A stretch of DNA of 64,000 nucleotides from an uncultured Chloroflexia bacterium (GTDB taxonomy: Bacteria; Chloroflexota; Dehalococcoidia; DSTF01; JALHUB01). Positions 22,157 to 44,980 of this stretch are shown in pieces; positions within the stretch are counted from its first letter, which is position 1; every line of letters begins with the position of its first letter. Below the pieces are notes generated by a model. That model was given only the letters and a program-made list of their open reading frames with translations. It ran no database searches and was not told the origin of the DNA. The position numbers and the translations under genes were made by a program. The stretch is taken from the NCBI GenBank assembly GCA_963719465.1, contig OY970386.1, forward strand, positions 1,369,471 to 1,433,470, written 5' to 3'.

Positions 22157-22507
22157 TTAGACCAGCTCCAGTTGGGCGACCTCGGCGCCGTCGCCGACGC
22201 GTCGTCCGAGCTTCACGACGCGCGTATAGCCACCGGGTCGGGTCGCGTACCGCGGCGCGATGTCGTCGAAGACCTTCTTCACGATGTCGGCGTCCGTGAC
22301 GACGCGCAAGGCCTGGCGTCGGGCGTGGACGGTGCCGTCCTTGCCGAGGGTGATTACCTTCTCGGCGATGCCACGCACTTCCTTGGCCTTGGCCTCGGTT
22401 GTGCGGATCCTTTCATAGCGAAAGAGGTCCGTGACCAGGCCACGGAACAGCGCCTGGCGTTGTGGCGTCGACCGCCGCAGCTTCCGACCGGCGACTTTGT
22501 GTCTCAT
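22157..22507 (-). CDS. rplQ: 50S ribosomal protein L17
   Basis: 116-aa canonical L17 ([22 protein letters not shown]...), found as the C-terminal part of the chimeric 508-aa track ORF. Confidence 0.9.
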
Positions 22508-23683
22508 GACTGCTCTTCTTCGTCTTCCCCGGGCTCCGTCTTTTCGCTCTCTTCCAGTTCGGCCGCAGGGAGGTCTTCGCCCACTTTGTGAAATGCCTGA
22601 AGGAGCGCGGCGCCAAGGGCGCTGACCGGCTCGCCTTCCTCCTGCGCGACGGTCGCTGCCCCTTCCTGCTCGATCTCCTCGTAGGCCAGAGGCGCTTCCT
22701 CCTCGGGTTCCGGCTGCAGGAAGCCCATCTCGATCAACTTCGCGCGGAGCTCGTCGTACGACTTGCGTCCGAAGTTGCGGAGCGCCAGGAGGTCGTCTTC
22801 GCTCTTTTCGAGAACCTGGCCGACAGTCATGAGGCCGCTGCGCTTGAGGCAGTTGTAGGCGCGGACGGAGAGGCTGAGCTGTTCGATTGGCGTGTTGTAG
22901 CGGTCGGGCGAGAGGGCAGCGCCGACGCCCAGGCCGCGCTCGACGATTGCCGGCTGCGGCTTGCCGATCTGGTTGTAGAGCGTGAGCTGGTCGATAAGAA
23001 GGCCGGCGGCGCGGCTGATCGCCTCGGAGCCGGTCACGGTGCCGTCGGTCCAGACTTCGAGGACCAGGCGGTCGTAGTCGGTGACCTGGCCGACGCGGGT
23101 TCTCTCGACCTGGTAGTTGACCTTGCGGATTGGCGTGAAGATGGCGTCGACCGGGATGACGCCGATGGGCGCAGGCTCGCGCTCCGTTGCCGGCCAGTAG
23201 CCGTGCCCCTGCTCGACCGTGAACTCGACGGTCAGGTGCGCATCGGGCGAGTCGAGGGTCGCCAGGTGGAGTTCGGTGTTGACGATCTCGTAGTCGGCGG
23301 TGGCCGCGATGTCGCCAGCGGTCACTTTGCCTTCGCCCGAGGCCTCCAGGTACAGCTTGCCCGGCCTGTCGGCGAGGCCGCGGAGGCGTATCTCCTTCAC
23401 CGCCAGGAGGAACTCCATCGGTATCTTCCTTGATGCCGGGGATAGTAGAGAACTCGTGCTCCACCTCTTCGAGGCGCACGGCGGTAATCGCCGCTCCGGG
23501 CAGTGAGCTGAGGAGAACGCGCCTGAGGGCGTTGCCTATGGTCGTGCCGAAGCCGGATTCGAGCGGCTCGGCGACGACGCGGGCGTACGTCTCATTCGCC
23601 TCTTCGATTTCGATTTGCGGCACCGCCAGCTGCGTGGTCGGAACGCCTTCTGTCTCGCCGTCTAAGGGTTGAGGAGATATCAA
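22504..23683 (-). CDS. rpoA: DNA-directed RNA polymerase subunit alpha, with an apparent +1 frameshift near 23414-23421
   Basis: N-terminal domain (IEIEE...[18 protein letters not shown]...[13 protein letters not shown]) reads in one frame (23683 down to ~23419). The rest ([12 protein letters not shown]...C-terminal domain [10 protein letters not shown]) reads in the frame of track ORF 22504-23418. Alignment to E. coli/B. subtilis RpoA places the junction exactly at EDT|(D/M)EFLL. Confidence 0.85.
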
Positions 23684-23702
23684 TTCTCCAGCCTCCCGCT
23701 CT

Positions 23703-24329
23703 CGCTAACGCGAGTAGTACTCAACTATGACAAGGGGATTCGAACGGCGCGCCGGCGTCTGCCGCCTCGGGAGCGCGCAGGACGCGGCCGGTCATGGTGG
23801 CGTCGTCGCGAACCAGCCAGCTTGGCACTTCCTTGCTCTTCGCCGTCTCCTCGACCACCTTGTAGTATTCGCTCTTTTTTCCTCTGGGGCTCCAGCCGAT
23901 GATGTCGTTCACCTTGACGTGGGCCGAAGGGATGCCGGTCTTGCGTCCGTTGATGACGACGTGGCCGTGGCGGACGAGCTGTCGGGCCTGGGAACGCGAG
24001 TCGGCGAGCCCAAGCCGATAGATGACGTTGTCGAGCCGCATTTCCAGCAGGCGGAGCAGGTTGTCGCCGGTCACGCCGGGCCTACGCACGGCCTCGGCGT
24101 AGTAGCGGCGGAACTGTCGCTCCAGGATGCCGTAGGTGAAGCGCGCCTTCTGCTTCTCGCGGAGTTGGACGGCGCGGTCGGAGATGCGGCGCCGTCGGGC
24201 CGTGCGGAAGCCTGGCGGCTGCGTACGGCGCTCCACGCCGCATTTCCTGTAGCACCGTTCGCCTTTCAGCATCAGCTTGTCGCCGAAGCGACGGCAGAGG
24301 CGGCACACCGGTCCTCTATATCGAGCCAT
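23703..24329 (-). CDS. rpsD: 30S ribosomal protein S4, with an apparent +1 frameshift at the GGGG run 23734-23737
   Basis: As sequenced the ORF ends ...APFESPCHS* at 23721. Removing one C from the minus-strand CCCC restores the canonical S4 C-terminus ...[14 protein letters not shown] ending at 23703. Confidence 0.85.
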
Positions 24330-24351
24330 TTACGTTAGTCTCCTTTGCCGC

Positions 24352-24747
24352 CTAGATCCGCCTTCGTTTGGGCGGACGGCAGCCGTTGTGCGGTATCGGC
24401 GTCACGTCGCGGATGCTGAGGACGGCGAGGCCGGCGCTCTGAAGGGCGCGAATGGCCGCCTCGCGACCGCTGCCGGGTCCTTTGACGAAGACGTCCACCT
24501 GTCGCATGCCCTGGTCCATCGCCTTGCGGGCGGCCTGCTGGGCGGCCATCTGGGCGGCGTAGGGCGTGCTCTTCCGCGAGCCCTTGAAGCCGGACGTGCC
24601 GGCGCTGCTCCAGGCAACGGCGTTGCCCATGGGGTCGGTGAGCGTTATGAGGGTATTGTTGAAGGTGGACTGGATGTAGGCTTTGCCCTTCGGGATTGAT
24701 TTTCGTTCCCGACGTCTGACCCGACTCTTTGCTTTCTTTTCGGCCAC
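24352..24747 (-). CDS. rpsK: 30S ribosomal protein S11
   Basis: 131 aa, canonical. Confidence 0.95.
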
Positions 24748-24762
24748 GAGCGCTATCCTCTC

Positions 24763-25146
24763 TTACTTCTTGGCGACGGAGCGTCGCTTGCCGGCCACGG
24801 TGCGTCGCGCGCCCCGTTTGGTGCGGGCGTTGGTGCGCGTCCGCTGGCCGTGCACGGGCAGGCCGCGACGGTGCCGGATGCCGCGATAGCAGTTTATCTC
24901 GATCAGGTGCTGGACGTTCTGGCGGACCTCGCGCCGCAGGTCGCCTTCGACTACGTATTCGCGGTCGATGACCTCGCGGATGCGGTTGATCTCATCGTCG
25001 GTCAGGTCGCGGACGCGCACCTTGCCGTCGATCTGCGTCTGCCCCAGGATCTTCTGGGAGCGCGTTCGGCCGATGCCGTAGATGTAGCCGAGGGCCACGC
25101 CGACCTGTTTGTCGTTGGGTATGTCGACTCCGGCGATACGTGCCAT
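24763..25146 (-). CDS. rpsM: 30S ribosomal protein S13
   Basis: 127 aa, canonical ([10 protein letters not shown]). Confidence 0.95.
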
Positions 25147-25159
25147 AATTCCTCCCGGG

Positions 25160-25273
25160 TTAGCCCTGCCGCTGCTTGTGCTTGGGGTTGGGGCAGATCA
25201 CCATAACGACGCCGTGGCGCCGGACGATCCGGCACTTTTCGCAGCGTACTTTTACTGATGCTCGAACTTTCAT
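25160..25273 (-). CDS. rpmJ: 50S ribosomal protein L36
   Basis: 37 aa [37 protein letters not shown], found inside the 65-aa track ORF. Confidence 0.9.
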
Positions 25274-25301
25274 TATATCCTCTTTTGCCGCCTGATTCGA
25301 C

Positions 25302-25520
25302 TCACTTGAATCGGTAGGTGATGCGGCCGCGCGACAGATCGTAGGGAGAGAGCTCAACGAGGACGCGGTCTCCCGGCAGAATTCGGATGAAGTGCAGCCT
25401 TATCTTTCCGGAGACGTGGGCGAGGACCTTGTGTCCATTCGCCAGGTCTACGCGGAACATCGCATTCGGCAAGGCTTCCCTCACCACCCCTTCTACTTCG
25501 ATCGTCTCTTTCTTGGGCAT
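25302..25520 (-). CDS. infA: translation initiation factor IF-1
   Basis: 72 aa, canonical S1-like IF-1. Confidence 0.95.
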
Positions 25521-25548
25521 AACCTCCTCAGACTTATTGCTTACCGTT

Positions 25549-26299
25549 CTAAGGCAGCGTCAGTATCTCCGCCTTGCCGTCGGTTACGGCGATTGTGTGC
25601 TCGAAATGGGCGGAGAGGCTGTGGTCGAGCGTGCTGACCGTCCAGCCGTCCTCGTGCCTTTTCGTGCGCCAGCCGCCGGCGTTGACCATCGGCTCGATGG
25701 CGAGCACCATGCCCTTTCTCAGGATGGGCCCCCGGTCCGCCGGCCCGAAGTTCGGGATTCTGCGGGTCTTCGTGCATCGCGCGGCCCACGCCGTGTCCGA
25801 CGTACTCGCGCACCACTGAGAACCCGGCCGCTTCGACTTCCGTCTGAACGGCATGCGAGACGGCGCCGAGCGGGCTCCCGGCCCTGGCTGCCTCTATTCC
25901 CTTGTAAAGCGCCCTCTCCGTCGTGCGGAGGAGGCGTTCGGTCTCCGCGCTTATGCGGCCGACGCCGACGGTTATCGCCGCGTCGCCGACGAACCCGTTA
26001 TAGGTCGCGCCGAGGTCTATGCTCAGCACGTCGCCGTCCTTTAGCGCCCGGTCGCCCGGAATGCCGTGGACGACTTCGTCGTTTGCCGAAAGGCAGACGC
26101 TGGCCGGATAGCCCATGTAGCCGAGGAAAGTCGGCTTTACGCCCCGGCCGGCGAACTCCTTTCGTACTATCGCATCCAGTTGTTTGCCCGTGACCCCCGG
26201 TTTCGCCTCCCCGGCCAGTACCTGCAGCACCTGGCCGACGGTGCGACCGGCTTCACGGATGGTCGCTATCTCTTCTTCCGATTTTATTATAATGGGCAT
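25549..26299 (-). CDS. map: type I methionine aminopeptidase, with an apparent +1 frameshift near 25757-25760
   Basis: The N-terminal ~175 aa (through [14 protein letters not shown]) read in the frame of track ORF 25541-26299. The conserved C-terminus ([30 protein letters not shown]...[11 protein letters not shown]) reads in the frame of ORF 25549-25854. Deleting one A from minus-strand CAGAATCCC rejoins them as ...EDPQIPNFGP... Confidence 0.85.
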
Positions 26300-26330
26300 C
26301 TAGCCCCGGCACCTCAAGGCGCCCGGCGGT

Positions 26331-26978
26331 TCAAGAAAGTCCCGCCGCCTTGAGCAGATCCCTGCCTACCGCGTCGGTGTCCTGCTCACCGTCAACCTCG
26401 AGCAGCTTGTTTTGCCCGCGGTAGTAGTCGATGAGAGGAGCCGTCTGCTGGCTGTAAACGCCGAGGCGGTTCCGAACCGTCTCCGGCTTGTCGTCGTCGC
26501 GCTGGTAGAGCTCGCCGCCGCAGCGGTCGCACTTGCCCGCCTGTTTCGGTGGGCTGAACGCCTCGTGATAGACGGCGCCGCACTGGCGGCAGGTCCAGCG
26601 GCCAGCCAGCCGCCGAACGACCTCTTCTTCGCCGACGTTGATGTAGAGCACTTTGTCGACGGTCTGGCCGCGCTTGGTGAGCGCCTCGTCGAGCGCTCGC
26701 GCCTGTTCGACTGTGCGCGGGAAGCCGTCTAGCAGGACGCCCTTCCGGGTGTCCGGGCGGTCAATCCGGTCGAGCAGCATGCCGACCGTTATCTCATCCG
26801 GCACCAGCGCGCCCTTGTCGACGAAGACCTTGGCCTTTTGCCCGAGCTCCGTCTGGTTGCGGATGTTCTCGCGAAAGAGGTCGCCGGTGGCCACGTGGAC
26901 GAGGCCGGCCTGCTTCGCGATGTTGACGGCCTGCGTGCCTTTGCCCGCGCCCGGAGGTCCCAGCAGTATGAGTATCAA
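26331..26978 (-). CDS. adk: adenylate kinase (with a Cys4 zinc lid)
   Basis: 215 aa; GPPGAGKGT P-loop; LID with CRQCG...CDRCG. Confidence 0.95.
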   Translation of the reverse strand: MILILLGPPGAGKGTQAVNIAKQAGLVHVATGDLFRENIRNQTELGQKAKVFVDKGALVPDEITVGMLLDRIDRPDTRKGVLLDGFPRTVEQARALDEALTKRGQTVDKVLYINVGEEEVVRRLAGRWTCRQCGAVYHEAFSPPKQAGKCDRCGGELYQRDDDKPETVRNRLGVYSQQTAPLIDYYRGQNKLLEVDGEQDTDAVGRDLLKAAGLS

Positions 26979-26995
26979 GATTCCTTCCTCAAGTT

Positions 26996-28339
26996 CTAGC
27001 GAATGAATCCGGCGTAGTTCCTCATCAGGAGTTGCGCCTCCAGCTGCTTCATCGTATCGAGCACGACGCCGACCATGATGAGAAGGCCGGTGCTGCTGAT
27101 GGTGAGCGCCGCCGTATTGGCAAACTTCGTCGCGAAGAAAGGCACGACGGCCACGAATCCAAGAAAGATGGCGCCCGCCCAGGTGATGCGCACAAGTACA
27201 CGCATGATATAGTCCTGCGTCGGCCGTCCGGGTCTTATGCCGGGCACAAAGCCGCCCTGTCGTTGCAGGTTCTCTGCCAGGTTCTGCTGCTGGAAGATTA
27301 CAAGCGTATAGAAGAAGGCGAAGGCGACGGTGAGGAAGAAGACCATGACGTAGTAGGGCACGTTGCCCGGGCTGAACGTGCCGGCGACGAACGTGGAGAC
27401 GTCGTGGATCCAGGTCGTGCTCGATGTCTCGAGCGCCTTCGCCATCGTGGCCGGGAAGATGACCACCGCATACGCGAAGATAAGCGGGATCATTCCGGCG
27501 GAGTTGACGCGGAGCGGAATGTGCGTCTGTCCGGACTGGCGGTACATGCGGCCACCGCGGAAGAGGCTGCGGGCGTATTGCACGGGGACCCGGCGCTGCG
27601 CTTCATAGAAGTAAACGATGAGCCCAATGAGGGCGATGATCAGGAGGAACAGGAGCGCGATACCCGCAAAGCCTATGGAAGAGCTGGCGATGCTCGGCAG
27701 GTAGAGGGGCATGCCGGCCACGATGCCGCCGAAAATGATGAGCGAGATACCGTTGCCGATGCCGTTCTCCGTAATTAGCTCACCCAACCAGACGAGGAAC
27801 ATGGTTCCGGCGGTCATAGAGGCAAGGGCCGCGCCGGTCGGCAGCAGGTCAGCGCCGGTGAGGCCGATGTGCTGTATCACAGCCGTTCCACCCGCGGAGT
27901 GCTGCAGGGTCTGGAGCTGCGCGTAGCCCTGGACGATGGCGAGAGGTACCGCCAGCCAGTAGGTGTACAGGGTGATTTTATTCTGCCCGGCCTCGCCTTC
28001 CTTCGACAGAGCTTGGAGCGAGGGGACGATAGGTATGAGGAGCTGCATGATAATAGTGGCGGTTATGTACGGATAGACGCCCATCGATGCGACGCTCAAC
28101 CTCCGGAGGGCGCCGCCGGAGAACAGGTTCAGATAGCTGAGGATCGCATTTCCAGCAAAGGCGTCGCTCAACGCCTGCTGGTTCACGCCGGGTATGGGCA
28201 CGTGCGAGACAAAGCGGAAGACGGTTAATATGAAGAGCGTGAAGAGCAGGCGCTTGCGGATGTCAGGCTGCCGAAACGCCTGCACGAGCGCCTGCGCGAG
28301 TCGTGGTAGGACGGGTTGATTCGCCCGGCTCTGTGTCAT
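26996..28339 (-). CDS. secY: preprotein translocase subunit SecY
   Basis: 447 aa, 10 TM segments, canonical SecY motifs. Confidence 0.95.
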
Positions 28340-28788
28340 TTCGCTGCCACCTCCTCCACCTTGCCGCCGGCCGCCTCGATCTTCTGTCGCGCCGTCGCCG
28401 AGAATTTGTGCGCGCGCACGGTGAGCGCAGCCTTCAGCTCGCCGTCCCCGAGCACCTTAATCGGCGTTTTCGCGTTCTTGATGATGCCCGCGCTTGCGAG
28501 CGTCTCCGCCGTCACCTCGCTGCCCGCCGGGAAGCCGGTCAGCCGAGAGACGTTGATCGGCTCGTATTCGACGCGGAAGACGTTCGTAAAGCCGCGCTTA
28601 CGCGCCATCCTGCGGACGAGCGGAAGCTGGCCTCCTTCGAAGCCGCGCTTGACGCCGCCGCCGGCGCGCGCCTTCTGCCCCTTCAGTCCGCGGCCGGAGT
28701 AGGTCCCGTGGCCGCTGGAGTTGCCTCTTCCCACCCGCTTCGGGGCATGACGAGACCCGGGGGCAGGCCGCAGTTCATTCTGCCGCAC
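28336..28788 (-). CDS. rplO: 50S ribosomal protein L15
   Basis: 150 aa, canonical. Confidence 0.95.
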
Positions 28789-28970
28789 TAGTCGGCCTCC
28801 TCCACGGATACGAGATGATTGACTTTGCGTATCATACCACGCACCGTTGGTGTGTCACCATGGACGACTGTTTGCCCCAGGCGTCGTAGGCCCAGGGCGC
28901 GGATTGTCCGCTTCTGGTCCCCCTGGCGACCGATGGCGCTCCTTACCCAAGTGATCTTAAGCTCGGACAC
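28788..28970 (-). CDS. rpmD: 50S ribosomal protein L30
   Basis: 60 aa, canonical. Confidence 0.9.
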
Positions 28971-29478
28971 CGACGCCCTCCGCTTGCCGAACTCCCGCCC
29001 GCCGCGACGCCCGCACCTGCGCGGGGTCCCGAAGCCGCGTCAGGCCAAGCATCGTCGCCTTGACGACGTTGATGGCGTTGGCGCTGCCCAGTGACTTTGC
29101 CAGGACGTTGTGGACGCCGGCCACCTCCATGATTGCGCGCACGCCTCCGCCGGCGATGACGCCGGTGCCGGGAGAGGCCGGTTTCATCAGCACTTTCGCA
29201 GCGCAGTACTTGCTTTCGATCTGATGAGGGATCGTCGTTCCGGCCAGCGGTATCTGAACCATGTTCTTGCGGGCGATGGTCGAGCCCTTGCGAATTGCCT
29301 CTGCCACCTCGCGCGCCTTGCCGAGGCCAATGCCGACCTTGCCGTGGCCGTCGCCGACGACGACGATGGCGCTGAAATGGAAGCGGCGTCCGCCCTTCAC
29401 GACTTTGGCGACGCGGTTGATGTGGACGACCTTTTCGACAATTTCGATTTCCGGCGGCGCTGTCTGTTCAAATACCAT
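28957..29478 (-). CDS. rpsE: 30S ribosomal protein S5
   Basis: 173 aa, canonical. Confidence 0.95.
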
Positions 29479-29489
29479 CGTTCGTTCCT

Positions 29490-29861
29490 CTAGAATTGCA
29501 GGCCGGCCTTGCGAGCCGCCTCGGCGAGGGCCTTGACGCGCCCGTGGAAGCGGTAGCCGCCGCGGTCGAAGACGACCTGCTCGACGCCTTTCTCCCGTGC
29601 CTTCTTCGCGATCAGGTCGCCGACCAGCGCGGCAACTTCGATCTTCTTCTTGCCGTTGCGGCTGCCGGCGTCTGCCTTCTCCACGTCGGATGCGGCGGCA
29701 AGCGTCTTGCCCGCGTCGTCGTCGATGACCTGCGCGTAGATGTGCGAGAGGCTGCGGAAGACGCAGAGACGGGGCCGGGACGCCGTTCCGCGTATCTTTC
29801 GCCGGACGCGTTCGTGGCGCCTCTTTCTGGCGGCGACCGGTGTCTTGCCTATCGTTGTCAT
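29490..29861 (-). CDS. rplR: 50S ribosomal protein L18
   Basis: 123 aa, canonical. Confidence 0.95.
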
Positions 29862-29865
29862 GTTC

Positions 29866-30414: not shown

Positions 30415-30433
30415 TTCGACTCCTCTGCTTCCC

Positions 30434-30832: not shown

Positions 30833-30892
30833 GCCTTCGCCCCCTCGGGAAAGTAGTTCCGCTGGCCTTTGCACGAAGTCACCTTCTCTCTC

Positions 30893-31078: not shown

Positions 31079-31101
31079 TACCTGCTCCTCTAACTCGCAT
31101 C

Positions 31102-31650: not shown

Positions 31651-31656
31651 TCGCTC

Positions 31657-31971: not shown

Positions 31972-31974
31972 TGC

Positions 31975-32343
31975 TTACACGACCTCCGGCGCCAGCGAGA
32001 CGATCTTCATGAAGTTCCGCTCGCGCAGCTCGCGGGCGACGGGGCCGAAGATGCGGGTACCCTTGGGGTTCTCCTTATCGCTTAGGATGACGGCAGCGTT
32101 GTCGTCGAAACGAATGTAGGAGCCGTCCTTACGCCCGTAGGTCTTCGCCGTTCGCACGATGACCGCCTTGACGACTTCGCCCTTCTTGACACTGCCGCCC
32201 GGCTGCGCTTGCTTGACGCTGGCCACGATCACGTCGCCGACGCGGGCGTAGCGACGCCCCGTGCCGCCGGAGACGTGAATGCACATTATCTGGCGAGCGC
32301 CGCTGTTATCGGCGACTTTCAAGCGTGAATAGATCTGAATCAT
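31975..32343 (-). CDS. rplN: 50S ribosomal protein L14
   Basis: 122 aa, canonical. Confidence 0.95.
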
Positions 32344-32855
32344 TCCTCTGCCTGTTCTGCCTGTTCCGTCGCTTCCGCTTCAACTTCCGCCGCCGCGACC
32401 TCCGGCTCGGCTTCCGACTGGGCCGCTGGCGCCTCTTCGGCAACTGCCGGCGTTTCCGCCTCCTCGGCGACCGGCGTCTCCACGGTCTCTTCAGTCGCGG
32501 GCGTTTGCGCTGGGGCGGGCGCTTCTTGCGTCATCGCTCTTTCCGTGTGCGGCCGCTCGATTCCGAGCAGAGACGCATCGATCTCACGCGGAGCGATCTC
32601 GGCCACTTCGCGACGGGTGACGATCTCCGCCAGCCGCCAGCGCTTTTCCCGCGAGAGGGGCCGACTTTCGACTATGCGGACGATGTCGCCTGTCTTGGCG
32701 AGCTTGTTGCCGTCGTGGACCTTGTAGCGCGTGGTCAGGCGCACCGTCTTGTTGTAGAGCGGATGCCGTTTGCGTCTCTCCACGGCGACGACGAGCGTCT
32801 TCTGCATCTTGTCACTCACTACAACGCCCAGTCGCGATTTTCGGCGAGTGTACAT
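32340..32855 (-). CDS. rpsQ: 30S ribosomal protein S17 with a ~85-aa acidic Ala/Glu/Thr/Pro-rich C-terminal extension
   Basis: The N-terminal ~85 aa are canonical S17; the tail is low complexity ([25 protein letters not shown]...). Confidence 0.9.
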
Positions 32856-34627: not shown

Positions 34628-34643
34628 TTATCCGTTTCCCGTC

Positions 34644-34937: not shown

Positions 34938-34946
34938 GGCTAGCTC

Positions 34947-35774: not shown

Positions 35775-35804
35775 CGAATCTGCCTCGTGTCATGGTTGCT
35801 GTCA

Positions 35805-36101
35805 TCAGACGCCCTCGATGATCTCGATCTTGTGGCCGGGCTTGAGCGTCACGACGGCCTTCTTCCAGTCAGGAGAGGCGCCGACGCCTCTTAGATTGCG
35901 TCTGGCCTTGCCACGGACGTTCATGACGTTTACGGCCTTCACCTCAACATCGAACGCGAGCTCCACCGCCGCCTTGATCTGGTGCTTGTTGGCGGCGCGG
36001 GCGACGCGGAAGGCGTACTGGCCCTGGCCCGCCAGGACAGTGCTCTTCTCGGTGACGAGCGGCCGCAGGATTACGGCATAGGGATGCAGCTCTTTAGGCA
36101 T
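35805..36101 (-). CDS. rplW: 50S ribosomal protein L23
   Basis: 98 aa, canonical. Confidence 0.9.
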   Translation of the reverse strand: MPKELHPYAVILRPLVTEKSTVLAGQGQYAFRVARAANKHQIKAAVELAFDVEVKAVNVMNVRGKARRNLRGVGASPDWKKAVVTLKPGHKIEIIEGV

Positions 36102-36957
36102 CTGTCGCCTCCGATTCGCCTGCGGTCTTTCGACGCCTGCGCGTCGCGGGCCTCTCGGCTGGCGCTTCCGTCGCTGGCTTGCGCCGTCGTCGAGCGGCCG
36201 GCTTTTCGGCTACCGCTGTTTCGACGGGTGCGGCAACTGCGACGCGGCGCCGCGTCCGCCCGGGGGCGGACGGAGCCCGTTCTGCGGCGGGCTCTGGCCC
36301 CGCCGCCAGCGGGGCCCGGCGCCGCACGGCGCGTTCGCCTCCCCACAGGCGCTCCGCCTGGCGCACCGCGCCCACCGTCATCAGCAGGTCCCGGTGCGAC
36401 AGCATGTCTCCCACGTTCAAATACGGCGCCGGCAACACGTCCACCTTTTGAAGGTTGTGGGCGCTCACCTTGACGCCGTTGTCGGAGTTCTCGGTTACGA
36501 CGAGGGTCGAACGGTCCAATCCCAGCGCCTGGAGAACGGCGGCCATGTCCTTCGTGCGCGGCGGCTCGAAGGTCAACGCGTCGAGGACTCGCAGCGATCC
36601 TTCCGCGACCTTGGTCGACAGCACCGACCGGATAGCCAGACGACGCATTCGCTTCGGCAGCCGCTGGTCAAAGCTCCGCGGCTTTGGGCCGAAGACGATA
36701 CCCCCGTGTCGGATGGCGGGTGAGCGCGCGGCCCCGAGACGGGCGCGGCCGATTCCTTTTTGCCGTCGAATCTTCGCTGTGCTGCCAGCGACCTCTCCGC
36801 GCGTCTTCGAGTTCGCCGTGCCGGTGCGTCGGTTCGCGAGCTGGGCCAGGAGCGCCTGATGGATGACGGGCTGGTTTGGCTCGATTCCGAATACGGCGGC
36901 ATCCGCCTCGATTGAGTCGACCTCTTTGCCTTCCCGGTTGACAACTTCCAGCTTCAT
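36094..36957 (-). CDS. rplD: 50S ribosomal protein L4 with a ~80-aa basic Ala/Pro/Arg-rich C-terminal extension
   Basis: Canonical L4 core (~205 aa), then a tail rich in RRRRK/PATEAPAERPATRRRRK repeats. Confidence 0.9.
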   Translation of the reverse strand: MKLEVVNREGKEVDSIEADAAVFGIEPNQPVIHQALLAQLANRRTGTANSKTRGEVAGSTAKIRRQKGIGRARLGAARSPAIRHGGIVFGPKPRSFDQRLPKRMRRLAIRSVLSTKVAEGSLRVLDALTFEPPRTKDMAAVLQALGLDRSTLVVTENSDNGVKVSAHNLQKVDVLPAPYLNVGDMLSHRDLLMTVGAVRQAERLWGGERAVRRRAPLAAGPEPAAERAPSAPGRTRRRVAVAAPVETAVAEKPAARRRRKPATEAPAERPATRRRRKTAGESEATDA

Positions 36958-36981
36958 CGCTCGTTTCTCAAATACTCGCGC

Positions 36982-37641: not shown

Positions 37642-37952
37642 TACAGCTTGATCTCGATGTCCACGCCGGCGGGAAGTTGCAGTCGCATTAGCGTATCCAC
37701 CGTCTTCGCCGTCGGTTCCAGGATGTCTATCAATCGCTTATGAGTCCGAATCTCGAACTGCTCCCGCGAGTCCTTGTCGATGACCGGAGAGCGAATTACC
37801 GTGAACTTCTTGATTTCTGTGGGCAGCGGGATGGGGCCGGCCACGGCGGCGCCCGTCCGCTCTGCTGCCTCCACAATCTGGCTTGCGGACTGATCGAGGA
37901 GCCGGTGGTCGTAGCCCTTCAGCCTGATCCGTATCTTTTGCCTTGAAACCAT
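37641..37952 (-). CDS. rpsJ: 30S ribosomal protein S10
   Basis: 103 aa, canonical. Confidence 0.95.
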
Positions 37953-37997
37953 GTTAAGCTGCCCCGTCCACTAGAACCTGACGATCTTCGGACCCCT

Positions 37998-40086
37998 TTA
38001 AGCCCTCGCCGGCCGCCTGGCGCGAACGCCGAGCTTTTCGACGACCGCGGGCGGCACCTCTTCGTAATGGTCGAACTCCATGTTGTGGCTTGCTCGTCCC
38101 TGCGAAAGCGACCTCAACTCTGTTGCGTAGCCAAATGTCTCTGCTAGCGGCACCAGCGCACGCACAACCTGCAGGCCGCCGCGCGACTCGACGCCAATGA
38201 CGTGACCGCGACGGCCATTGACATCGGCGAGAATATCGCCGAAGAAATCCTCCGGCGTCAGCACTTCGACTTTCATGATCGGTTCCAGGAGAACGGCATC
38301 GCCATGCTCGAGCGCCTTTCGCATGCCCATCGAGCCGGCCATGCGGAACGAAAGCTCCGACGAGTCAACCTCGTGGTAGGCGCCGTCGACCAGCGCTACT
38401 CTGACGTCAATGACGGGGTAGCTGGCGACCGGGCCGTTCTCCAGCGCCTCGTTGACGCCGGCGCGGACCGCAGAAATGAACTCGCGCGGGACTACGCCGC
38501 CGACCGTTTTGTCGACGAACTCGAAGCCGGCGCCGCGCTCTCTCGGCTCGACCTCCAGCCAGACGTCGCCGTACTGACCTCGGCCGCCGGTCTGCCGTAC
38601 GAAACGTCCCTCGGCGCGGGTGGCGGACCGGATCGTCTCCTTGTATGCGACCTCCGGCTTGCCGACATTGGCGTCGACGCGGAACTCGCGAAGCATGCGG
38701 TCGACGATCACCTCCAGGTGCAACTCGCCCATGCCGGAGATGATGGTCTGGCCGGTATCAGCGTCGTAGCGCGTGCGGAAAGTGGGGTCTTCCTCCGCCA
38801 GGCGGTTCAACGTCTCGCCCATCCGGTCCTGGTCGTCCTTCGTCTTCGGTTCGATGGCGACGGACAGAACCGGCTCCGGAAAGCGGATCGACTCCAGCAC
38901 TATTGGGTGAGCGCGGTCGCACAGAGTGTCGCCGGTGAACGTATTCTTCAGGCCAACTGCGGCGACGATGCCGCCGGCGTGCACCTCGTCGACCTCTTCG
39001 CGGCGGTTGGCGTGCATGCGCAGGATGCGGCCGAATCGTTCCCTCTCGTTGCGGGCGGCGTTCAGAATAGTTGCGCCGACCTTTACCTGGCCGCTGTAGA
39101 CGCGGAAGTAGGCAAGCCGCCCAACATACGGGTCGGCGACGATCTTGAAGGCCAGAGCCGTGAACGGCTCGTTGTCGTCTGCTTTTCGTTGGACTGTCTG
39201 ATTGTTCTTGGGGTTGATTCCGGTCACCGGGGGGACGTTCTACGGGAGCCGGGAGGTAGTCGACGACTGCGTTCAGGAGAGGCTGGACGCCCTTGTTTCG
39301 CAGGGCGGAGCCGCACATTACCGGCGTAATTGCGCCAGCCAGCGTGGCGCGCCTGACCGCCTTCTTCAACTCCAGCGTCGTCAGCCGGTGTCCCTCGACG
39401 TAGCTGATCATCGCCTGGTCGTCCACTTCCGCGAGGGTCTCGGTGAGGCGCTCACGGTAGGGGGCGCACTTCTCGGCCAACTCGTCGCTAAGGGGCAGCA
39501 CGTCGGGGTTCTCGTGGCTTTCCGGCGGGAAGTACCAGGCCTTCTCCTCGACCAGGTCCACCACACCCTCGAAGCCTGCCTCGACGCCTATCGGCACCTG
39601 TATGGCTACCGGCCGCGCGCCCAGGCGCTGCTTCACCATCTCGATGGTGTTCCAGAAGTCCGCGCCGATGCGGTCCATCTTGTTAACGAAGCAGATCCGC
39701 GGCACGCTGTAGCGGTCCGCCTGCCGCCAGACCGTCTCCGACTGGGGCTCGACGCCGGCGACGGCGTCGAAGACGACCACGCCGCCGTCGAGGACGCGCA
39801 GGCTGCGCTCCACCTCGACGGTGAAGTCCACGTGGCCCGGCGTGTCGATGATGTTGATCTGATGGTCGAGCCATTCGCAGGTGGTAGCGGCGGCGGTTAT
39901 GGTGATGCCGCGCTCGCGCTCCTGGGCCATCCAGTCCATTACCGCCGTGCCCTCGTGCACCTCGCCCATCTTGTAGGTGCGGCCGGTGTAAAAGAGGATG
40001 CGCTCAGTGACCGTAGTCTTGCCGGCGTCAATATGGGCAATGATGCCTATGTTGCGTAAGCGCTCGATAGGAAACTGCCTGGCCAT
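37998..40086 (-). CDS. fusA: elongation factor G, with an apparent +1 frameshift at the G6 run 39229-39234
   Basis: The G domain ([25 protein letters not shown]...DYLPAPVE) reads in the frame of track ORF 38758-40128. Domains II-V ([10 protein letters not shown]...[12 protein letters not shown]...) read in the frame of ORF 37998-39227. Removing one G/C from the 6-mer rejoins them as ...[17 protein letters not shown]...; total ~695 aa. Confidence 0.85.
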
Positions 40087-40177
40087 GATTTCTATCCCCC
40101 GCGAACGGGGCTTTGTCGATACGATCAATGTTCTACGTATTGCCTTCGGTTAGAGCGGCGACGCGCGCCGCTCGCGA

Positions 40178-40648
40178 TTACCAGCGATAGTGGACGAAGG
40201 CGCGGTTGGCCTCCGCCATCCTGTGCGTGTCTTCACGCTTCTTGACAGTTGCGCCCTGACCAGAGGCGGCGTCGGCAAGCTCAGCGGCCAGTTTCTCCGC
40301 CATCGAATGCCCCTTGCGGGCGCGGGCGGAAGCGATGAGCCAGCGCATTGCCAGCGTGGCGCGCCTTTCGGGGCGGATGTCCACCGGCACCTGATACGTC
40401 GCGCCGCCTACGCGCCGCGGCTTCACCTCAACGACCGGCGTCACGTTTCGCAGCGCCTGTTGGAACGTGTCGATGGGGTTTCGGCGGTTCTGCGCCTCTA
40501 GCAGCTCCAGCGACTTGTAGACGACGCGTTCCGCCGTGCTCTTTTTGCCGCTATACATGATGCGGTTGATGAAGCGCGAGAGGTCTTCGCTCTGGTACTT
40601 GGCGTCCGGCGCTATGATGCGTTTGACAACTTTGGCCCGCCTTGGCAT
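40178..40648 (-). CDS. rpsG: 30S ribosomal protein S7
   Basis: Canonical S7 from MPRRAKVVKRIIAPD (156 aa); the track ORF is over-extended upstream. Confidence 0.9.
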   Translation of the reverse strand: MPRRAKVVKRIIAPDAKYQSEDLSRFINRIMYSGKKSTAERVVYKSLELLEAQNRRNPIDTFQQALRNVTPVVEVKPRRVGGATYQVPVDIRPERRATLAMRWLIASARARKGHSMAEKLAAELADAASGQGATVKKREDTHRMAEANRAFVHYRW

Positions 40649-40667
40649 GTTCCGCTCTCTCCGCTGT

Positions 40668-41093
40668 CTACTTCGACTTGGCGCCGGCTTTGCGCGTCCC
40701 GTACTTGCTGCGACCACGATTGCGGCCGTCGACGCCCTGCGCGTCAAGGGCGCCGCGAATGACGTGATAGCGCACACCCGGCAGGTCTTTGACGCGTCCG
40801 CCGCGGATGAGCACGACCGAGTGCTCCTGGAGGCTGTGCCCTTCGCCGGGAATGTACGCCGTCACCTCGATGCCGTTCGTGAGCCGCACGCGGGCAATCT
40901 TCCGCAGAGCGGAATTCGGCTTCTTCGGCGTCATGGTGCGTACCTGAGTGCAGACGCCGCGCTTTTGCGGCGAGCCTTCGCCGCGCTCGGTCCGGTTCTT
41001 AAGGGCGTTGTAGGTAAAACGCAGAGCGGGCGCCTTCGTCTTCTTGACGAGCTTCTTGCGTCCTTTGCGCACTAATTGGCTTATGGTGGGCAC
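40668..41093 (-). CDS. rpsL: 30S ribosomal protein S12 (GTG start)
   Basis: Canonical S12 from (V)[14 protein letters not shown]; the upstream part of track ORF 40668-41198 is leader, not coding. Confidence 0.9.
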
Positions 41094-41261
41094 GCGCTTA
41101 CCTCTCTCAGGAATCTTGGACTGGCCTGCTCTCAGACAACAAAAAGGCCGAAAACCTGATTCTGAGCCAGTACAGCGTGAAGCGCCGTGGCGCTTCACTA
41201 TCGCTGACCGTAGTCAATTCGAGGTCTTTCGACCTTGCTTTGCTCTGTCGCTCAGCGCCAA

Positions 41262-41298
41262 ACACATACTTTACGTGATATGGCGCAAGAGTGTCAAG
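41262..41298 (-). promoter_or_regulatory. str-operon promoter candidate: consensus -35 TTGACA (plus 41292-41297) - 18 nt - TAAAGT (-10, plus 41268-41273), ~170-nt leader to rpsL
   Basis: Hexamers read on the minus strand; the -35 lies inside the IS copy-2 target duplication. Confidence 0.4.
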
Positions 41299-42224
41299 CA
41301 GTGTAGGGTTTCAGGAGATGTGGTAATCCGGGCCTGAGGTAGACGCTCCTGAGCGTACACGAGCGGCGCGCTGTAGCCAAGAGCACTGTGCAGCCGTTTC
41401 TTGTTGTAGAAGCGCACATACGCCTGCAACCCCTTCTCCCACTCCAAGACCGTTCCCGCCAGAACGCCATCCCAGAACTCCTCTCGCATCGTCCTCTGCA
41501 CTCTCTCCACCTTGCCATTGAGATGAGGCGTCCTGGGTCTGATCCGGACGTGGCGAATGCCTCTTCGCCTCAGAAGGGCAGTGAGGTCGCCTGAGAATTC
41601 AGGGCCGTTATCAGTCTGGAGGCAGCGAATTGCGAACGGGATGGTCTCCAGGAGGCACGGCAGGGCTTTGCAGACAGCGGCGCAGGTGCGCCTGGAAAGA
41701 ACCGTTGCGGCAAGAACGCGGCTGCAATCGTCGACCAGGGTCAGTTGGTAGCGACCCTCCGGCAGATAGAGCAGGTCCATCTGAGCCCGATCACCGGGGG
41801 AAGCTTTGGCGTAGTGCAGCCAGAGACGCTTAGGTTTACGGGGACAGGCAAGGAGGGCGCCGGCGCGACGGAGAACTCTGTAGACACTGGAAACGCTGCA
41901 GGTAATCAGCCCGGCCTTTGTCAGATACGCGTGGAGCCTCTTTACTCCGAAGCCGAATTTACGATGGGCGCCGCGGATGATGTCTAGAACATGCCCTGAA
42001 AGGGCCGTAGGCGAGCGGTGAGGCCTGCGGGAGCGGTCTGATAGCGCTCTCCTGTCGTGGCGTCGCCAGGCCGCCCACCAGCGAGAGAAGGTCGAATGGG
42101 GCACCTCTCCCGCCTGGCAAAAGATGCGGGCGCTGAGCCTGGGATACTGCCGACGCGCCTCCTCGAACGCAGCGATGTAGGCGGCTCTTGTCTGGATGGG
42201 CCAGGGTGTGCGAGCTTTGTGCAT
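41271..42224 (-). CDS. IS481-family transposase, copy 2; a 1-nt difference near the 3' end lets the ORF read through the right IR into flanking DNA
   Basis: 317 aa, identical to copy 1 through ...ERLPQARI, then diverges. Copy 2 has GGATTACC where copy 1 has GGATCTACC. Confidence 0.85.
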   Translation of the reverse strand: MHKARTPWPIQTRAAYIAAFEEARRQYPRLSARIFCQAGEVPHSTFSRWWAAWRRHDRRALSDRSRRPHRSPTALSGHVLDIIRGAHRKFGFGVKRLHAYLTKAGLITCSVSSVYRVLRRAGALLACPRKPKRLWLHYAKASPGDRAQMDLLYLPEGRYQLTLVDDCSRVLAATVLSRRTCAAVCKALPCLLETIPFAIRCLQTDNGPEFSGDLTALLRRRGIRHVRIRPRTPHLNGKVERVQRTMREEFWDGVLAGTVLEWEKGLQAYVRFYNKKRLHSALGYSAPLVYAQERLPQARITTSPETLHCLTLLRHIT

Positions 42225-42327
42225 GTCGGGCCTCCTGTAGGTTATTGGGCTTCGTTTTCCGTTAGCCTACAGCCCAGGCCCGACGTTATTCACCTCCCTT
42301 CTGTCTCACATCTCCTGAAACCCTACA
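41302..42327 (-). mobile_element. IS481-family insertion sequence, copy 2 (1026 bp), inverted relative to copy 1
   Basis: Same 21-bp terminal IRs (41302-41322 and 42307-42327), flanked by a 16-bp direct repeat CAAGAGTGTCAAGCAG at 41286-41301 and 42328-42343. Confidence 0.9.
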
Positions 42328-42358
42328 CAAGAGTGTCAAGCAGATGGCGAAATGGCCG

Positions 42359-42808
42359 CTACATTCGGCCGAGGAGGTCGCGAACGACTTCGCTTACCTC
42401 TTTGCCGTCGGCGCGGCCGCGAAGCTGGGCGGTCAGCGGGCCCATGACCTTTCCCATGTCGCGCGGGCCCTGGGCGCCGACCTCGTCGATGATCTTTCGT
42501 GCTGCGGTTTCGATGTCTTCTCGCGACATCGCCGGCGGCAGGTAGGCCTGCAGGATCGCTGCTTCGGCCTCCTCTTTGTCGACGAGGTCCTGGCGGTTGC
42601 CGCGCCGGAACTCTTCGGCGCTCTCTTTGCGCTGCTTGACCTGCTTGGCGATCACCGCGAGGACGCCGCCGTCATCCAGCGGCTCGCCCTTCTCGATCTC
42701 GGCGTTGTGGACGACGGAGAGGAGAAGGCGGAGGGTGGTTTTGCGGGTTTCGTCGCCCGCCCGCAGGGCCTGCGTCAGGTCGGCGTTAATCTGGTCTTTG
42801 ATGGGCAT
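42359..42808 (-). CDS. GatB/YqeY domain-containing protein
   Basis: 149 aa with the YqeY family pattern (LRLLLSVVHNAEIEKG...). Confidence 0.75.
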   Translation of the reverse strand: MPIKDQINADLTQALRAGDETRKTTLRLLLSVVHNAEIEKGEPLDDGGVLAVIAKQVKQRKESAEEFRRGNRQDLVDKEEAEAAILQAYLPPAMSREDIETAARKIIDEVGAQGPRDMGKVMGPLTAQLRGRADGKEVSEVVRDLLGRM

Positions 42809-42850
42809 GGTGATGCTGCGCTCCGCTTTCTTGCTGCGATGTCGGACGGG

Positions 42851-43030
42851 CTAGCGCCGCTCGCTCTTGCGACGCTTGGCGGCGGCCTTCCGCTTTCGTC
42901 TGACGCTCGGCTTCTCGAAGCGCTCACGACGCTTTGCTTCGGAAAGGATGCCATACTGTTGCACCTTCCGCGTAAAGCGTCGCAGCGCCGCCTCGAAGCT
43001 CTCGTTTTCGCGGACGATTACTTCCGTCAA
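42851..43030 (-). CDS. rpsU: 30S ribosomal protein S21 (TTG start)
   Basis: Hand-translated 59 aa (L/M)[58 protein letters not shown]; below the ORF-track size cutoff. Confidence 0.75.
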
Positions 43031-43140
43031 CTCGTGAACCCCATCGAGATGGGCTCATAACCTGATGGCTGCAGAATTATATTGAGGTGTGCATGTTCTG
43101 TCAACGAGCGCGACAGAGTGAGACGGGCCAGATTGGCGCT

Positions 43141-43866
43141 CTATTGTCGGGCGGGTTTCTTGGGGATCTTCTTGAAGCGCATGCGGGTCAGGCCGCGAAT
43201 ATCCTCCGTCGCCGTCTTGCGAATGTTGACGCGCGTGTCGGGGTCTTCCCGCCAGCGGACCGGTATCTCCTTTATCCGGTAGCCGCCTTTGTCGGCGAGG
43301 ATGAGGAGCTCGGTGTCGAAGAACCACTCTTCGTTCTTGATCAGCGGGACGAGCGTGCGGGCGGTCTCACGGCTGACGGCCTTGAAGCCGCACTGCGCGT
43401 CGACGAAGCTGGGCCAGAACGAGAGCTTAATCATGAGGTTGTAGACGCGCGAGGTGAACTCGCGGCGGGGCGAGCGCGTGGTCTGGGCGCCCTTCTTCAG
43501 ACGGGAGCCGATGGCAACGTCGTAACCCTCGTCGGCGATGGCGGCGACGAGCGCGGGGAAGAAGGCGATGTCGGTGGAGAGGTCAACGTCCATGTAGGTG
43601 AGGACGTCGGCTTCGCTGCCCAGCCAGGTCGCCCGCAGCGCGCGGCCGCGTCCCTTCTGCGGGATGTGGAAGGGGACGACGTCGACGTGCTCCTCCGCCA
43701 GCTTCTGGGCGACGGCGAGCGTCCCGTCGGTGGAGGCGTTGTCGGCGATGACGATGCGCCAGATGTGCGGCAGGTTGTCGCGCAGGAAATCGCGCAGCGT
43801 CGCGACGCTCTGCGCGAGCACGTGCTCTTCGTTGTAGACGGGTATCACGACATCGACGTTCGCCAT
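43141..43866 (-). CDS. family 2 glycosyltransferase (polyprenyl-phosphate sugar transferase-like)
   Basis: 241 aa with GT2 motifs (VIPVYNEE, DADL-type). Confidence 0.8.
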   Translation of the reverse strand: MANVDVVIPVYNEEHVLAQSVATLRDFLRDNLPHIWRIVIADNASTDGTLAVAQKLAEEHVDVVPFHIPQKGRGRALRATWLGSEADVLTYMDVDLSTDIAFFPALVAAIADEGYDVAIGSRLKKGAQTTRSPRREFTSRVYNLMIKLSFWPSFVDAQCGFKAVSRETARTLVPLIKNEEWFFDTELLILADKGGYRIKEIPVRWREDPDTRVNIRKTATEDIRGLTRMRFKKIPKKPARQ

Positions 43867-43884
43867 GGCCTACTCCTCCTGCGT

Positions 43885-44980
43885 TTATGCGCCAAGAGTA
43901 TCCTTCAGCAGGCGGGCCAGCCGCAAGGGGTCGCCGGCGATGACGCTTGCCGCGTAGAGCTCCATTGCGCCGAAATCGCTGGTGCGGTCCATGAGGTCGC
44001 CGCGGTCGACGATATGAGCGATGGCCGGGAAGCAGCGCCAGTCCTCGTCGGCGGGCGCGATGGGCGGCAGGTAGAGCGCCAGGTTGAACGAGACGACGCC
44101 GAGTCGGTCGCGCAGGCAGGCCAGCACCTCGTAGGCGCGGTCCTTCAGCGAGGCATCGAGCGCCGGCGCGATGAGCAACACCTCGTTCTCTTTGAGCGGC
44201 GCCAGGTTAGCGATGACCCGCACGCCTTGCTTCTCGAAGGCGCAGCCGACGGCGGCGTGGGCGTGGAACAGGTCGTCGAAGTAGTCGCTGTTATTGCGGG
44301 AGCGATAGACGAGGGCGGCGCGGCGAAGTGATTCGACGGCGGGGTAGTGCGCCTCGCGCCCGAGCAGCACCTGGGCGTGGCCGTGAACGAGCGAGGAGCC
44401 GGCCCGCCAGAGGCAGTTCCACACGAAGAGGAAGTACCTGGCGCTCGCGTCGACCTTGTGGGCGGCGCGGGCCCAGCGAAGGCCGGTGTCGACGTAATCG
44501 TGCAGCATCTCGCGGTTGAAGCGCAGTGGGTCGCGCTCCTTGAAGATGACGAGCGAGTGGAAGCCGTCGAACTTGGCGACGTTGGCGCCGGTGACGCAGT
44601 GCTTGCCGTCGATCCGGCCGAACGTCGGCGGGGGTGCTTTCCAGCGCGTCGGCGAGGGGGTCGGAGTCGCGGTCCGTGTCGAGAGATGACTGGAGGTCTG
44701 CCCGGCCGGCCGGCGAGTGGGGGCGGCGCGAGCGCAGCGGGTTGAAGAGGGCGCCGCGACCGGTGACGACGTTGGTTACGCGGATGATTCGCTGGGCAAG
44801 GGTCGGTTCGACGGCGCCGAACTGCTTCTCGATCCAGGGACGCATGGAGTCGGGCGGGACGATGCGCCCTTCGACGGCGTCGACGCGGAGGATGCGGCGA
44901 AAAACGGCGCGTTCGGTCGCTGGAAGCGCCTCGACAAGGTCAGGCAGGTTGGCGATGCCGGGAACGCCGTCGTCAGCCAT
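43885..44980 (-). CDS. GalT-like HIT-superfamily nucleotidyltransferase/phosphorylase (galactose-1-P uridylyltransferase family), with an apparent +1 frameshift at the G5 run 44630-44634
   Basis: The N-terminal ~110 aa read in the frame of track ORF 44291-44980. The C-terminus with the HxHxQ-like motif (FVWNCLWRAGSSLVHGHAQVL) reads in the frame of ORF 43885-44508. Removing one C from minus-strand CCCCC rejoins them as ...DALESTPPTFGRIDGKHCVTGANV... Confidence 0.7.

Follow-up and report, generated by a model that had tools for sequence, protein, structure and literature searches.

Genomes and metagenome-assembled genomes (MAGs) obtained from Nanopore reads only are documented to retain residual indels which fragment gene calls (PMC9262707; 10.1101/2021.08.23.457338), and the same problem is documented for MAG catalogues in which Medaka was the sole polishing step (PMC12313526). 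Modification-linked Nanopore errors have also been published, and these are mostly mismatches, not indels (PMC10687267). Here, we analysed a window of 64 kb (the whole stretch of 64,000 nucleotides) from a contig of 2.31 Mb that was assembled from a metagenome and belongs to a Dehalococcoidia bacterium. In this window, rpoA, rpsD, map, fusA and a GalT-like gene are each split between two reading frames. We conclude that the five frameshifts are very probably consensus indel errors of a MAG that is likely to derive from long reads, and not a biological phenomenon. In the organism itself, RpoA, S4, MAP, EF-G and a GalT-fold enzyme are almost certainly encoded at full length and in normal form.

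Three-frame translation showed a single reading-frame switch in each of the five genes. Codon-usage Viterbi segmentation, employed in place of a plain GC3 frame plot which was too noisy, found the same five switches, with a net +1 shift needed per gene. By using tblastn with approximately 55 orthologues of relatives, we found that between 13.4 and 50.6 kb only these five genes are split. The initial annotation, in which one net +1 switch per conserved gene had been proposed, is thus borne out by all three approaches, and the conserved motifs quoted in it, including PPVTGINPK of EF-G, are present. All five split genes lie on the minus strand, and both halves of each match intact orthologues. 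The lesions were placed by codon-level alignment to relatives, as follows:

22504–23683, minus strand: rpoA (RNA polymerase alpha); extra base in the plus-strand GG at 23420–23421 (mRNA ACG to ACCG).
23705–24329, minus strand: rpsD (ribosomal protein S4); extra base in the plus-strand TT at 23739–23740 (mRNA GAT to GAAT).
25549–26299, minus strand: map (methionine aminopeptidase); extra base in the plus-strand TT at 25758–25759 (mRNA CAG ATC to CAG AATC).
37998–40086, minus strand: fusA (EF-G); extra base in the plus-strand TT at 39238–39239 (mRNA GAC GTC to GAA CGT C).
43885–44980, minus strand: GalT-fold (HIT superfamily) gene; two bases missing at the junction 44622/44623 (mRNA GAC GTC TTC to GAC G TTC).

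The relatives comprised 14 loci (L081–L094) from nine other assemblies or metagenome samples, and every relative recovered has intact genes, at a nucleotide identity of 79–91%. At the rpoA site, relatives L086–L089 read GAC ACG ATG GAG (KEDTMEF) and the window reads GAT ACC G ATG GAG, which truncates the protein at residue ~88 of 392. The rpsD site is TTC GAT CCC CT[CT] GTC in the relatives, and in the window the final 10 codons fall in the other frame. Five relatives have CAG ATA CCG AAC (HEDPQIPNFG) at the map site; as deposited, map loses its C-terminal 70 aa. EF-G is truncated at residue ~284 of 695, in a region where the fusA genes of all relatives encode PAPVDVPPVTG. In the GalT-like gene, relative L093 reads GAC GTC TTC GGG where the window reads GAC G TTC GGC. 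Hence, the lesions are four duplications of a single non-repeated base (1-mer to 2-mer) and one 2-nt deletion, and of the five single-base insertions first proposed, four stand as extra bases while the one in the GalT-like gene does not. No additional frameshift was found in 43 further CDS (27.6 kb) or in the flanks, and a search for hidden compensating indel pairs in the 43 other CDS returned none.

When one base was taken out at each of the four mapped insertions and 2 nt were added at the GalT-like site, the products were RpoA of 392, S4 of 207, MAP of 249, EF-G of 695 and a GalT-like protein of 365 aa. The first four are of orthologue length (RpoA 383–392, S4 207–209, MAP 249 and EF-G 695 aa), and the fifth lies inside the range of its orthologues (362–380 aa). 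The repaired ORFs contain neither internal stops nor secondary lesions, and the junction peptides, TPADVFGR of the GalT-like protein among them, agree with those of orthologues. The dN/dS values downstream vs upstream of the lesion were 0.04 vs 0.08 for fusA, 0.07 vs 0.09 for rpoA, 0.04 vs 0.13 for map and 0.15 vs 0.23 for the GalT-like gene. The ratios past the lesions are thus not raised, gene decay is absent there, and purifying selection is equally strong on both halves of each gene.

The fifth gene was named from its likeness to GalT, and on the evidence of a predicted structure the name is correct as far as the fold is concerned. An AF2 model (pLDDT 85, pTM 0.88) gave 1z84/2h39 as top Foldseek matches (E 1e-10, TM 0.55–0.66), together with the GalT structures 1gup/1hxq (E 1e-8), while the protein had zero matches to Pfam, NCBIfam and PDB sequences. 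Residues T116, P117, D119, F121, G122 and R123, as well as the HGHAQ motif (H200-G-H-A-Q204), are invariant among 27 homologues. The modelled two-lobed GalT fold and the HxHxQ nucleotidyl-histidine motif thus place the protein in the GalT branch of the HIT superfamily.

An insertion sequence present in more than one copy on the contig served as an internal control:

12212–13238, plus strand: IS copy 1, 1027 bp in length; the right inverted repeat contains the stop of its 304-aa transposase; used as the internal standard against which the indel of copy 2 is read.
41302–42327, minus strand: IS copy 2 (rve-type DDE transposase), 1026 bp; 1 nt absent between 41325 and 41326 in comparison to copy 1.

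The two copies agree at 1026 of 1027 positions, and their sole difference is one 1-nt gap, at which copy 1 reads GGATCTACC and copy 2 GGAT-TACC. Owing to the missing nucleotide, the transposase ORF of copy 2 (317 aa) reads out through the terminal inverted repeat; the earlier suspicion that IS calls may be affected was therefore justified, as the indel alters the C-terminus of the transposase. The contig has a third copy, whose product is a 318-aa variant; this variant appears to be explained by a +1 change at the same spot. The exact 304-aa transposase of copy 1 was also found on independent Logan contigs. The assembly contradicts itself at the IS repeat. At one site, CGGATCTACC, the copies on the contig appear to be in the −1, 0 and +1 states.

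Truncated EF-G (409 aa), RpoA (304 aa) and S4 (202 aa), together with a 252-aa MAP, are on record for one NCBI/ENA contig of 2,314,715 bp, and so the lesions sit in the deposited assembly; the recorded 409-aa EF-G (P0126) is identical to the window ORF 37998–39227. Since one 2.3-Mb contig was obtained from a metagenome, the record is a probable long-read-only assembly. The closest large relative bears the name 'contig_6311' (ENA ERZ25039477), and such 'contig_N' naming resembles that of Flye-type assemblies. We looked for a second, independent assembly at the level of the same species (>95% ANI) and found none, and contig look-ups by the exact SecY, RpsM and 409-aa EF-G products of the window had no match. 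An L16 scan of genome contigs gave relatives of at most 78% amino-acid identity among the matches listed, and none of the JGI sequences in protein searches was closer than ~89–96% amino-acid identity, so that same-species DNA is not expected there. A 304-aa RpoA of another assembly (P0374) was considered as an independent instance of the same frameshift and rejected as a contig-edge truncation: the start of its contig, L094, is 14 nt upstream, and the extra base is absent from its sequence, GACACGATGG.

In our proposed explanation, the contig would carry scattered consensus indel errors of 1–2 nt; in the coding sequence from 13 to 51 kb, these amount to ~1.5 per 10 kb. Of the six errors in the window, four would duplicate a single base, one would delete 2 nt and the last, in the IS copy, would delete 1 nt. 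Five of them break conserved genes, which is why these genes look frameshifted. The errors may have arisen in basecalling or polishing, and the sequence around them (GATC, GACGTC), a low coverage or a mixture of strains may have promoted them. Counted against this explanation is the distribution of the six indels, all inside 21 kb of the 64-kb window (range test, p ~0.02), which is not predicted by uniformly random errors. The value of the result is that of quality control only. Split essential genes on this public 2.31-Mb contig are already in protein databases as fragments, many other contigs of the same pipeline probably carry them too, and tallies of pseudogenes, of recoding events or of IS variants made from this genome would be misleading.

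As to sequence context, GATC is struck by three of the six in-window indels and by one inferred indel in the IS copy outside the window, and two other indels touch GACGTC. The three of six at GATC hint at a context-dependent error. The window contains 260 GATC sites (~4.1 per kb, in comparison to 4.2–4.7 per kb in five relatives), of which ~1% are affected; this density led us to reject systematic miscalling of GATC as GAATC. Shared 7-mers (GAATCCC twice, GAACGTC/GACGTTC) were also considered as proof of context specificity (simulation p = 0.0016 for two disjoint pairs) and set aside; the GAACGTC/GACGTTC pair lost its meaning once the GalT-like lesion turned out to be a 2-nt deletion. It could be proposed that the indels mark modified bases (m6A in GATC, perhaps GACGTC) which derail basecalling or polishing, and are not random noise. 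We regard this as unlikely, and because published modification-linked errors are mostly mismatches, the link to GATC lacks an established mechanism. If true, the frameshift map would be an indirect methylome read-out of an uncultured Dehalococcoidia bacterium, and an indel-type, motif-linked error mode would be overlooked by current polishers. The biological version of this idea, a real mutational hotspot at GATC, is far less likely.

Genuine recent frameshift mutations, as pseudogenes or as a defective subpopulation caught by the assembly, are very improbable. Single-base duplication and dinucleotide loss are ordinary spontaneous mutations, and direct contradiction from a same-species assembly was not found. 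However, rpoA, fusA, map and the C-terminus of S4 would have to be inactivated simultaneously, and four of the five split genes are essential in those bacteria where this has been studied; no second copies of rpoA, fusA, map or rpsD are carried by the window. Moreover, secondary lesions are absent and downstream dN/dS is 0.04–0.15, which is not the relaxed selection expected of pseudogenes, and IS copies on the very same contig appear to differ by −1, 0 and +1 at one site. The intact genes of relatives, the purifying selection on both halves and the self-contradiction of the assembly agree with the initial annotation in favouring an artefact over pseudogenes or programmed recoding.

The specific cause suggested there, homopolymer-length miscalling with a surplus G/C in each of three runs (G4, G6 and G5) and two 2-mers, is hardly credible. 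Three lesions do lie 2–8 nt from G/C runs of 4–6 bases, and deletion of a run base, which we performed for fusA, returns an open frame. The placement at the two 2-mers, near 23414–23421 (extra G at 23420/21) and 25757–25760 (extra T at 25758/59), was right. The three placements in GGGG 23734–23737, GGGGGG 39229–39234 and GGGGG 44630–44634 were not, as the alignments give TT 23739–23740, TT 39238–39239 and 44622/44623, respectively: single bases or a TC/CT dinucleotide, 2–8 nt off the runs. Run lengths are the same as in relatives that are in frame. The C6 run of fusA is found in L081 (GTG GAC GTC CCC CCG GTA), being broken by substitution in the other relatives, and the C4 run of rpsD is shared with L084, L087, L088 and L089, while L085 has C5. 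In the GalT-like gene, STPAD is read through the C5 run before the junction, as in homologues. Run-based repair thus restores the frame but not the canonical proteins, giving the non-conserved ER for DV in EF-G (PVERPP for PVDVPP) and ES for DP in S4 (PFESLV for PFDPLV), and dropping the invariant D119 plus one residue from the GalT-like protein. A detectable length error was present in none of the 73 window runs of at least five bases.

Restoration of the proteins by transcriptional slippage or by programmed +1 frameshifting on the ribosome has a practically negligible probability: although a net +1 shift is what each of the five genes requires and CCC-C strings lie near the fusA and GalT-like sites, the shift sites are missing from every orthologue recovered, including those at 90% nucleotide identity, the junctions ACC-G-ATG, GAA-T-CCC, CAG-A-ATC and GAA-C-GTC offer neither an A-site stop or rare codon nor a re-pairing P-site codon, the A/T runs (maximum run 6) are too short for polymerase slippage, and the GalT-like lesion additionally costs an invariant-spacing residue.

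In comparison to known systems, the split genes resemble prfB-type programmed +1 frameshifting in that a single +1 shift is required for a full-length essential protein. They differ from it in having no conserved shift site, in-frame stop or slippery codon, and in that their orthologues are unshifted. With modification-linked Nanopore errors (Wick et al. 2019, PMC6591954; Chiou et al. 2023, PMC10687267) they share recurrence at short palindromic motifs; however, those errors are mismatch-dominated, while the lesions here are indels and affect ~1% of 260 GATC sites. The likeness is to the residual indels of long-read-only assemblies (Sereika et al. 2022, PMC9262707; proovframe, 10.1101/2021.08.23.457338), where indels of 1–2 nt split conserved genes into two adjacent ORFs, orthologues are intact and single megabase-scale contigs come out of metagenomes; the known cases are remedied by reference-guided or short-read polishing. 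That literature stresses homopolymer indels, whereas in our window every run of at least three bases keeps its length at the six lesions, four of which turn a 1-mer into a 2-mer. Because the errors lie outside runs, homopolymer-only polishing would miss these sites.

Five genes of the window are split by frameshifts that are an artefact of the deposited assembly, namely consensus indels outside homopolymers, and no biological feature. The window has a G+C content of ~65% and carries, on the minus strand at 20-42 kb, a ribosomal-protein/secY/adk/map/infA/rpoA superoperon. In three-frame translation, the frame changes once in each of the following minus-strand genes, with a net +1 shift needed each time:

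rpoA, TTG start at 23683: N-terminal ~88 residues in one frame, the other 304 residues in ORF 22504-23418
rpsD: final 10 residues in a different frame
map: frame switch at MHEDPQ / IPNFG
fusA: overlapping ORFs 38758-40128 and 37998-39227
GalT-like gene, the fifth: 43885-44980, 365 aa

A Viterbi segmentation by codon usage, run independently over the full window, placed frame switches at 23427/8, ~23738, 25758/9, 39239/40 and 44623/4, and no further switches were found beyond ordinary gene boundaries. Since translation and segmentation agree on one switch per gene, the basic observation of the initial annotation, which had reported these five genes as frameshifted, is real; judged from sequence comparison, its coordinates and mechanism need correction.

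Relatives with 79-91% nucleotide identity to the window (loci L081-L094, drawn from nine further assemblies or metagenome samples) served for comparison. The genes are full length in every relative recovered (EF-G 695, RpoA 383-392, S4 207-209, MAP 249 and GalT-like protein 362-380 aa). When ~55 genes of L082, L087 and L088 were searched against the window by tblastn, only the five reported genes were split in the range 13.4-50.6 kb. Pairwise codon-region alignments of 43 other coding sequences (27.6 kb) contained no gaps of a length not divisible by three, thus these hold no hidden compensating indels. Open frames also run through the flanking genes (1-13 kb, 50-64 kb), whose Pfam matches, where present, span full models. 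Some translation and transcription proteins are unusually long in this clade, a property common to the relatives:

rpsQ, 32340-32855: S17, 156-177 aa in the clade
rplD, 36094-36957: L4, ~275 aa
rpoA, 22504-23683, minus strand: RpoA, 383-392 aa in the clade, acidic C-terminal tail of ~60 aa

The flanks also hold a tRNA-Sec gene (57214-57311, minus strand; ARAGORN; Rfam RF01852, 71.6 bits), adjoining thioredoxin reductase (57715-58692) and thioredoxin (58693-59097) genes. An uncharacterised 321-aa ORF (1456-2421; no Pfam match) has a SAM riboswitch (2512-2627, minus strand; RF00162, 73.8 bits) upstream and a PNP/MTAP-type phosphorylase (567-1478) after it; this arrangement suggests a methionine-salvage operon. 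The 1.9-kb segment 50586-52451, of low coding score and reduced G+C (~61%), holds a DUF7689 protein (50850-51296) and two small ORFs without a family match, and may be a foreign islet or additional damaged sequence.

Alignment to the relatives located each lesion (sequences in mRNA sense, affected bases on the plus strand):

fusA: relatives GT[AG] GAC GT[CT] CC[CT] CCG GT[AG], window GTA GAA CGT CCC CCC GGT; extra T, TT 39238-39239
rpsD: relatives TTC GA[TC] CCC CT[CT] GTC, window TTC GAA TCC CCT TGT; extra T, TT 23739-23740
map: relatives CAG ATA CCG AAC, window CAG AAT CCC GAA C; extra T, TT 25758-25759
rpoA: relatives GAC ACG ATG GAG, window GAT ACC GAT GGA G; extra G, GG 23420-23421
GalT-like gene: L093 GAC GTC TTC GGG, window GAC G TTC GGC; 2 nt missing between 44622 and 44623

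These are four duplications of a single base into a 2-mer and one dinucleotide loss. Repair at the mapped sites yields products of 392 (rpoA), 207 (rpsD), 249 (map), 695 (fusA) and 365 aa (GalT-like) with no internal stops, and the junction peptides agree with orthologues. The initial annotation had placed three of the lesions in G/C runs and read all five as homopolymer-length errors, but none is of this kind, as the alignments place them outside the runs. The fusA run 39229-39234 is not the lesion, because L081 carries the identical C6 run and is in frame. The C4 run of rpsD is the same in L084, L087, L088 and L089 (C5 in L085), and the first frame of the GalT-like gene reads through its C5 run as DALESTPAD, as in homologues. 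Run-based repair yields PVERPP in EF-G and PFESLV in S4, in contrast to PVDVPP and PFDPLV in orthologues; in the GalT-like protein, where 27 homologues all share T116, P117, D119, F121, G122 and R123, it loses the invariant Asp and one residue. No length errors were detectable among the 73 mononucleotide runs of 5-6 nt in the window.

The GalT-like protein has no sequence match in Pfam, NCBIfam or PDB. Its family (members of ~364 aa) is well conserved, with >1,600 matches, mostly in Dehalococcoidia and annotated mostly as hypothetical. The structures matched by an AlphaFold model (27 homologues; pLDDT 85, pTM 0.88) are 1z84 and 2h39, the GalT-like ADP-glucose phosphorylase of Arabidopsis (E 1e-10), and GalT of E. 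coli and human (E 1e-8); the HGHAQ motif is invariant in homologues. The label is thus fair at the level of fold, and we confidently predict a GalT / ADP-glucose-phosphorylase fold for the family. A GT2 glycosyltransferase (43141-43869) lies downstream.

The lesions can be followed into the deposited record. Repaired EF-G has an intact 695-aa orthologue of 97% identity in a Dehalococcoidia MAG, and the 90% cluster of the latter includes a 409-aa fragment (P0126), identical to window ORF 37998-39227 and on record for a 2,314,715-bp NCBI/ENA contig. Exact look-ups found the 304-aa RpoA fragment, a 202-aa S4, a 252-aa MAP and intact SecY on this same contig. The lesions were therefore already present in this megabase-scale metagenome contig as deposited and are not a later addition. 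Among large relatives, contig_6311 (2,283,752 bp, ENA ERZ25039477) is the closest.

An internal control is provided by two copies of one insertion sequence, neither with a counterpart at its position in the relatives:

IS copy 1, 12212-13238, plus strand: 1027 bp, HTH_32 and rve-type DDE transposase, ~22-bp terminal inverted repeats
IS copy 2, 41302-42327, minus strand: the same element with a 1-nt gap

The gap, at 41325|41326, is their sole difference (CGGATCTACC in copy 1 vs CGGAT-TACC in copy 2). The copy 1 transposase has 304 aa and stops within the inverted repeat, a form also found on independent Logan contigs; the copy 2 product (317 aa) runs out beyond the element. The 2.31-Mb contig is also the source of a 318-aa variant in the protein collection, whose tail ARILPHLLKPYT would result from +1 at this position. 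Repeats of one assembly that are otherwise identical thus come in three lengths at a single site, which points to consensus error and not to inheritance. The two copies are inverted to each other, with at least one more elsewhere on the contig, and the direct repeats that border them are unusually long (15 bp, TCGGTTGATCGCCCT, and 16 bp, CTGCTTGACACTCTTG). Insertion took place between an HTH/PASTA gene and tRNA-His in one case and between rpsL and yqeY in the other. Although most of the ribosomal-protein cluster lies between the two copies, gene order remains collinear with the relatives.

If the truncations were real, RpoA would end near residue 88 and EF-G near residue 284, and MAP would lack its C-terminal 70 residues; from what is established about these proteins, this would be lethal. 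There is no sign of gene decay, dN/dS (window vs L082 or L087) being lower downstream than upstream of the lesion in fusA (0.04 vs 0.08), rpoA (0.07 vs 0.09), map (0.04 vs 0.13) and the GalT-like gene (0.15 vs 0.23). So far as can be judged from sequence, programmed +1 frameshifting is excluded: the shift sites recur in none of the orthologues, and the junctions ACC-G, GAA-T, CAG-A and GAA-C offer neither stop nor slippery codon. Transcriptional slippage is ruled out because the longest A/T run in the window is <=6 nt. A 304-aa RpoA from another assembly (P0374), considered as an independent case of the same frameshift, was rejected as a contig-edge truncation: the sequence at its site is GACACGATGG, with the extra base absent, and it shares its first Met with the window fragment only because its short-read contig (L094 1-929; ENA ERZ27250006 k141_407108) begins 14 nt upstream. 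Fragments of equal length within clusters can thus imitate shared frameshifts.

As for the kind of consensus error, a GATC base is affected in three of the six in-window indels (rpsD, map and IS copy 2), and the +1 of the third IS copy would fall at the same GATC as the copy 2 indel. GATC bases make up ~1.6% of the window (260 sites; binomial, uncorrected p ~1e-4, ~0.01 allowing for all 4-mers). The fusA and GalT-like lesions involve GACGTC, and a single 21-kb stretch of the 64-kb window contains all six indels (p ~0.02 in a range test). These patterns exceed random noise and hint at context dependence, perhaps through modified bases, or at a local fall in consensus quality. We regard the GATC pattern as a lead and not a finding, since most of the published errors linked to base modification are mismatches (PMC10687267; PMC6591954) and only ~1% of GATC sites in the window are affected. 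The value of the result is that of a quality-control flag for the contig and for its protein fragments propagated in databases. The density of five frame-breaking indels in ~33 kb of compared coding sequence, on a single 2.3-Mb metagenome piece, would agree with indels left behind in a long-read-only assembly; such indels are well described (PMC9262707; 10.1101/2021.08.23.457338), and large Nanopore MAG catalogues with Medaka-only polishing exist (PMC12313526).
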